Source: a virus (taxonomy: Duplodnaviria; Heunggongvirae; Uroviricota; Caudoviricetes). From it: 36,219 nt of DNA. The position numbers were made by a program, and so were the translations under genes. Position 1 is the stretch's first letter, and every line of letters begins with the position of its first letter. A model generated the notes under the pieces. The model was given only the letters and a program-made list of their open reading frames with translations, did no database searches and was not told the DNA's origin. The stretch lies in IMG/VR virus record IMGVR_UViG_2879765931_000005; one strand, given 5' to 3'. Shown here in pieces: positions 16,029-16,175 of the stretch.

Positions 16029-16175
16029 TAATTATTCTCACTTGTAGGGAGGGGCGGGTCAAATCCCTGCAGCCCTGGCTGTCCGGGACCGCCCGCCAAC
16101 CCTTCCTCGCATCGCCGCAGGTTCGAAAACTTTTTTTTGGGAATGCGATCAAGCGATTGATAGGTAAAATCGATT

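Follow-up and report, generated by a model that had tools for sequence, protein, structure and literature searches.

A probable cos site of the HK97/phiP27 type between the HNH endonuclease and terS genes of a lambdoid-style prophage

Main features of the site

We have analysed a stretch of 36,219 nucleotides of a Caudoviricetes virus (IMG/VR record IMGVR_UViG_2879765931_000005), which we will call the window. The segment 16029–16175, between the HNH endonuclease gene and terS, is best read as a prophage cos of the HK97/phiP27 type, with a predicted cut at 16090–16099. We give this reading a probability of roughly 85%. It is supported by a register shared with the ends of phiP27, SfI and HK97, all of which align to 16090–16099. 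The site is an ordinary cos of a well-studied type: the system is already well understood and the refinements reported here are small. Two comparative observations, on the conserved box upstream and on the joint between modules at the cut, are minor and do not amount to a discovery. What is gained is that packaging ends can be predicted to the nucleotide in a prophage family whose HNH–cos–terS region is found in 1031 of the 5426 complete E. coli genomes, about one fifth of them. Such a prediction can help to linearise genome records, to run checks in the style of PhageTerm and to build cos-plasmid or transduction tools.

The prophage and its packaging genes

The window is a lambdoid-style prophage with a Shigella/E. 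coli background; it has the Rfam RNAs CssrB, sok and IS009 and several IS elements. Its late genes, identified from open reading frames and Pfam domains, follow the order lysozyme (14743–15174), Rz (15159–15635), HNH, terS, terL, portal and a fused protease-capsid gene. The HNH gene (15678–16028, plus strand; PF01844, E=4e-16) codes for a packaging accessory nuclease; it is the last gene of the left homology module. Its product matches the HNH endonuclease of PDB 5h0m (E=3.5e-12) and has 78% amino acid identity with Sb56 of ST64B; with gp74 of HK97 the identity is 36%, over 45 amino acids only. The right homology module has as its first gene terS (16176–16658, plus strand), which codes for a protein of the Terminase_4 or P27 family (PF05119, E=1e-25). 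It is followed on the same strand by terL (16658–18415), which codes for an HK97-type large terminase with ATPase plus nuclease domains (PF03354 plus PF20441). TerL is 38% identical to that of phiP27; it is homologous to HK97 gp2, as its match to the large terminase subunit of PDB 6z6d demonstrates (E=1.9e-35). The sequence-only reading had taken HNH, a P27-type TerS and TerL for an HK97-style set: the Pfam domains and the homology of TerL agree with it. The placement of HNH next to terS and terL, as expected of a cos of the HK97/phiP27 type, is what the open reading frames and Pfam domains give in the window.

Some other features of the window may be mentioned. The ORF 19792–21558 (588 amino acids) has a prohead protease domain (Peptidase_S78) fused to Phage_capsid and overlaps the 3′ end of the portal gene. 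A hydrophobic ORF of 60 amino acids (18427–18609) separates terL from portal, in a position which matches that of the small "membrane protein" L37 of phiP27. Four tRNA genes (Met-cat, Lys-ttt, Thr-tgt and Gly-tcc) are clustered at 9851–10160, in the late-regulatory region of the prophage. Near the left end there are a tRNA-Asn (2700–2775, minus strand) and a tRNA-Ser-cga (3767–3856), which may mark the integration site. Rfam matches at or above the gathering scores are found within 6775–6950, 35037–35216 and 35973–36176: they are a sok antitoxin RNA, CssrB and an IS009 RNA. The sok RNA represents a hok/sok-type module within the prophage, and CssrB is the chromosome-encoded Shigella sRNA B.

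Composition of the intergenic segment

The segment is exactly the gap between HNH, which ends at 16028, and terS, which starts at 16176. It had been described as GC-rich. This is true of its core only (16044–16123, 70% GC), which is in the top 0.04% of all 80-nt intervals by GC content; the whole segment has 52%, against 50% in the window overall, and its 3′ third (16124–16175) is AT-rich, with 35% GC. Two motifs had been singled out and both are present. The first one, GGGAGGGGCGGGTC, is found at 16047–16060, with one match at up to two mismatches when 0.15 are expected; it is part of a box common to phages of the HK97, phiP27 and SfI types, at a fixed distance from the cut. The second one, GGGACCGCCCGCC, is found at 16085–16097. 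A comparison with the mapped cos sites of related phages had been proposed as a check: their termini fall inside this second motif and not elsewhere, so that the proposal of a cos site in this gap is supported. Its details need correction as regards the type, which is HK97/P27 with a 10-nt 3′ overhang and HNH-assisted cutting, and the clade of TerS.

The same motifs had been likened to lambda cosN, and one might consider a site of the lambda type, in which a gpA/Nu1-like terminase would leave a 12-nt 5′ overhang. The likeness of these G/C-rich motifs to GGGCGGCGACCT is vague and did not survive a count: with up to three mismatches GGGCGGCGACCT has 28 matches in the whole window, when 28.4 are expected by chance, and none inside the segment. 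The proteins also disagree with it, since TerL is HK97-like (PF03354/PF20441) and TerS belongs to Terminase_4, not to Nu1. Pfam gives TerL_ATPase/TerL_nuclease and Terminase_4 domains, and no gpA-type TerL or Nu1-type TerS was found in the window. Finally, the register agrees with that of HK97-type sites, which are reported to have 10-nt 3′ ends. The probability of a lambda-type site is negligible.

Homology to mapped and annotated ends

The predicted cohesive end is CGCCCGCCAA, at 16090–16099 on the plus strand; together with the preceding GAC it occupies 16087–16099. It has been located by homology to the ends of phiP27, SfI and HK97. We infer that the bottom strand is nicked between 16089 and 16090 and the top strand between 16099 and 16100, which would leave a 3′ overhang. 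For virions of the window type the predicted 3′ COS end would be CGCCCGCCAA or CGCCGCCTGA.

On the left side the window resembles phiP27. A megablast search with the HNH–gap–terS region against the phage collection matched phiP27 with 96.7% identity over query positions 1–420 only, and the match overlies a "cos-site" annotated in its GenBank record. This feature, known here as an annotation, is a misc_feature of NC_003356 (21806–21815, CGCCCGCCCC) placed between the HNH gene L34 and terS L35. The left module of the window, 410 nt to the left of the overhang (15680–16089, HNH gene plus intergenic DNA), has 96.6% nucleotide identity with the L34 region. The HNH gene, box, spacer, GAC and first 8 overhang nucleotides taken together are about 97% identical, and the site lies equally far from the stop codon of HNH in both. 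Aligned pairwise, the window is like phiP27 up to 16097, through CGCCCGCC, and diverges completely afterwards: the similar stretch covers 8 of the 10 nucleotides of the annotated site. The overhang ends with CC in phiP27 and with AA in the window, everything to the right is unlike, and the downstream block is of another type.

In SfI the virion ends are known from direct run-off sequencing, which found a 10-nt gap 5′-TGCCCGCCCC-3′ relative to the prophage (PMC3636060). We find TGCCCGCCCC at the aligned position in SfII, SfV and ST64B. The Shigella serotype-converting phages SfI, SfV, SfII and SfIV share with the window the box, the spacing, the GAC and an overhang YGCCCGCC..., and they also have HNH as the last late gene and terS as the first gene. 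They differ in the first overhang base, T instead of the C of the window, and in their right half and TerS, which belong to the P27/SfV clade.

The third case is HK97, whose DNA ends have a 10-nt 3′ overhang (PMC9410871, PMC11331095). Its genome record finishes with ...GAC CGCCGCCAAA and starts with GTTTGAATTT..., which gives CGCCGCCAAA/GTTTG as the end junction. The numbering of the record fits the published numbering of the TerS site (T16, C:G 21, A/T 24–29), so that base 1 of the record is the cleavage position +1. As in the window, we find a box (GGGGGGGGATCAAATC), a 21-nt spacer, GAC, the 10-nt end and then +1, in identical register. The two phages also have homologous TerL proteins and an analogous downstream G/C step followed by an A/T tract, although the downstream sequences are unrelated and terS starts at +50 in HK97 and at +77 in the window.

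A single register is common to three cos positions, namely the annotated one of phiP27, the gap mapped by run-off in SfI and the physical terminus of HK97. The window is homologous to all three of them in that register, as box-N21-GAC-YGCC.... In HK97, phiP27 and SfII, as in the window, the T of TCAAATC precedes +1 by exactly 41 nt.

These ends also bear on headful packaging, in which the conserved sequences would be a pac site and the virion ends would be permuted. P27-family TerS proteins in general are not confined to cos phages, which is in favour of such a possibility. However, close relatives have defined 10-nt ends (SfI, HK97 and, by annotation, phiP27). Furthermore, the HNH gene adjoins the terminase genes in the window, an arrangement considered a signature of HK97-like cos packaging (Kala et al. 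2014, as cited in PMC11331095 and PMC9410871). We consider headful packaging extremely improbable.

Other phage records were searched for independent physical ends. None were obtained from mEp235, SfII, SfV and PSTRCR_117lys, which are linearised artificially or circular: the mEp235 record (NC_019708) stops exactly before the ATG of terS, that of SfII begins directly after the HNH stop codon, that of SfV begins 7 nt before the overhang, and that of PSTRCR_117lys is circular. Among IMG/VR contigs and loci, ends near the motif were coincidences only (loci L298 and L234), due to boundaries of storage chunks or of prophage extraction. A full-text literature search for the overhang strings gave unrelated primers only.

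The conserved upstream box

To the left of the predicted cut there is a conserved box, GGGAGGGGCGGGTCAAATC (16047–16065, plus strand), formed by a G-run plus TCAAATC, with the consensus GGGG-GGG(A)TCAAATC. It is nearly invariant in HK97, phiP27, SfII, ST64B, mEp235, phi467 (LN997803) and in Klebsiella and Morganella phages, and in each of them the distance of 41 nt to +1 is kept. The spacer which follows (16066–16086, plus strand) has 21 nt in all representatives, and its sequence varies with the module type. In mEp235, phi467 and the Klebsiella and Morganella phages the architecture is always the same: box, 21-nt spacer, GAC, a 10-nt YGCC(C)GCC-NN(N) and the right half; the phi467 type has TAC in place of GAC. 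The composite GGTCAAATC-N21-GACCGCC has a single match in the window, with 0.00 expected. In IMG/VR it is present in at least 120 contigs, and a large majority of these run on into cos-like right halves.

The box and the nick region are common to phages with strongly diverged HNH, TerS and TerL proteins. From its position, the box is a putative cosQ-like or nuclease-positioning element; its placement resembles that of lambda cosQ. In the literature surveyed, a partial survey, no description of the box was found. An imperfect inverted repeat is formed by GGGGCGGGTC in the box and GACCGCCCGCC at the cut site. We do not claim a structural role for it, since the fold is not significant and its arms show no co-variation between module types.

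The segment might instead have a role unrelated to packaging, either as a transcriptional or RNA element (a terminator after HNH, a leader RNA of terS, a leftward promoter) or as a small ORF. There is a T8 run at 16131–16138, a promoter-like match on the minus strand (16062–16034) which would use the box as its −35 element, and a GTG ORF of 73 amino acids (16025–16246); small hypothetical CDSs are annotated at the equivalent place in some phage records. Against this we find neither terminator-like hairpins nor Rfam matches in the segment, and its single-strand fold is unremarkable (z=−1.3; 24 of 200 shuffled sequences fold equally well). An invariant box, a variable spacer of fixed length and a switch of modules at the cut form the pattern of a protein–DNA site, not of a coding frame. 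A transcriptional or coding role is very improbable.

The downstream block and the TerS clades

To the right of the cut we find the predicted TerS recognition block, CGCCGCAGGTTCGAAAAC-T8 (16113–16138, plus strand, i.e. +14 to +39), which consists of a G/C step and then an A/T tract. It was delimited by conservation and co-variation. The loci collected have two types of block. The one of the window, which we call beta, accompanies the TerS of the window/mEp235/Morganella/Klebsiella clade in 92 of 92 distinct combinations; the alpha block, ACCCGCGAAA..., accompanies the P27/SfV clade (TerS of phiP27 and SfII) in 18 of 18. Thus block type and TerS clade agree in all 110 distinct combinations that were classified. 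The two clades are only 18–28% identical to each other. The TerS of the window has 74% identity with that of mEp235 and 18% with that of phiP27: it belongs to a different clade from the latter within the same Pfam family. The beta block is nearly invariant although the TerS proteins of its clade are only 57–74% identical.

In HK97 the TerS nonamer has a minimal 15-bp site at +15 to +29, in which one C:G pair is critical and an A-tract comes next (PMC11331095). The G/C step and A/T tract of the window lie a few bp further from the cut. Co-variation with the clade, the nearly constant sequence of the block in spite of diverged TerS proteins and positional analogy make 16113–16138 a likely candidate for the TerS binding site. 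By sequence comparison, the TerS of the window has no detectable similarity to HK97 gp1. The HK97 protein is equally dissimilar to both clades, falls outside PF05119 and has its own downstream block. A sequence search of the PDB with the TerS of the window returned no terminase, and hence no template for the Arg128/Arg7 contacts of HK97.

The general plan is reminiscent of lambda, where cos is tripartite (cosQ-cosN-cosB) and the downstream TerS-binding region is specific to the TerS type (PMC6739421). In both sites an element upstream, on the DNA packaged last, precedes a nicking site, and a region for TerS, predicted in the case of the window, lies downstream; lambda differs by its 12-nt 5′ overhang, its gpA/Nu1 proteins, the absence of HNH and a sequence similarity at chance level.

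A mechanism may be suggested from these analogies. On the concatemer, TerS would bind the G/C step and A/T tract at 16113–16138, about 15–40 bp downstream of the cut. The HK97-type TerL nuclease, aided by the adjacent HNH endonuclease, would then nick the two strands 10 bp apart, at 16089/16090 (bottom) and 16099/16100 (top), to leave the 3′ cohesive end CGCCCGCCAA. In HK97 the HNH protein gp74 stimulates cutting (PMC11331095, PMC9410871). Packaging would run rightward into terS. The box at 16047–16065 would be on the last-packaged DNA and is probably required either for the cut at termination or to position the nuclease. For the phage of the window we infer the cut positions, the polarity of the overhang and the protein–DNA assignments from the sequence, while homology and common register with the mapped sites are observed.

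Module switching at the predicted cut

The relatives of the window can be described by a few types of left module (HNH, box and the overhang up to its eighth base) and of right module (from terS on), which reassort. Cos is thus divided in two parts: a left half, box plus nick site, common to HK97-like phages, and a right half specific for each TerS clade. The comparative set locates the exchange of modules exactly at the cut. When the window and phiP27 are compared in bins of 10 nt, 8–10 positions out of 10 are identical up to the overhang bin (8/10), and only 2–5 in the bins that follow. The loci L012 and L025 give a profile which behaves identically. The Klebsiella phages vB_VIPKPNMC05 and Kp4882-1 are identical in 10/10 positions from the box to −11 and in 9/10 of the overhang, then in 1–5/10 rightward. 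Homology therefore switches inside the last 2–3 nt of the overhang in three independent pairs, which points to the cos cut as a recurrent mosaic joint. Partial matches in E. coli genomes end at query position 148, which is 16097 in the window. Mosaic joints were noted at 16090–16100 in the window and at loci L001, L012/L025 and L170/L173.

In the window CGCCCGCC/AA resembles a left end of the phiP27 type fused to a right end of the phi467 type. We tentatively propose, as a possibility which is rather doubtful, that the cut is a recurrent point of module exchange and that CGCCCGCC/AA is a chimera, perhaps produced by joining or recombination at the cohesive ends of two phages. The joint may have originated by heterologous cohesive-end joining, by break-induced recombination at cos or by selection on functional modules. 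If the proposal is true, nicking by HNH/TerL would tolerate almost any sequence at overhang positions 8–10. The specificity of the nuclease would then be carried by the invariant box and not by the overhang: a cosQ-like element common to unrelated sets of HNH, TerS and TerL.

State of this prophage copy

An IS66-family element occupies 10767–14653 (an HTH_Tnp_1 ORF, TnpB_IS66 and DDE_Tnp_IS66 in two ORFs) and is split by a nested IS3-family element (12663–13819). Two more copies of the same IS3-family element are found at 22230–23386 (minus strand) and 24382–25538 (plus strand), each with an HTH_Tnp_1 ORF of 100 amino acids plus an rve ORF of 272. They are placed among head-completion and tail genes, upstream of the tail sheath gene (26090–27586). 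The prophage is almost certainly defective.

It may be asked if cos has also decayed, the AA at 16098–16099, where phiP27 and SfV have CC, being an inactivating lesion which makes the site uncuttable. The prophage is indeed decaying, with two IS3 copies in the head-tail genes besides the IS66-family element and the IS3 nested in it, and the overhang of the window is unlike every mapped one. But at least 10 distinct prophage sequences, which otherwise differ by 1–6%, have CGCCCGCCAA as well; this argues against a decay lesion. Together with the presence of the region in 1031 of 5426 genomes, it shows that the variant is not a one-off lesion. Moreover, overhang positions 8–10 vary freely in relatives (AAA in HK97; TGA, TAG, TAA and TCA), and the base switch coincides with the switch of a whole module, not with a point lesion. 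We find a degenerate site very unlikely.

The cos sequence of the window is intact: it is 99.5% identical to that of one IMG/VR relative over both modules. An E. coli genome, NZ_CP065613, has a nearly perfect match to the region at 649284–649584, with 99.7% identity. Given the IS66 and IS3 insertions in the prophage, three in all, this copy of cos is most likely intact yet idle, and self-packaging by the prophage of the window is unlikely. The IS66-family element is placed just upstream of the phage lysozyme gene, at the position where a holin would be expected.
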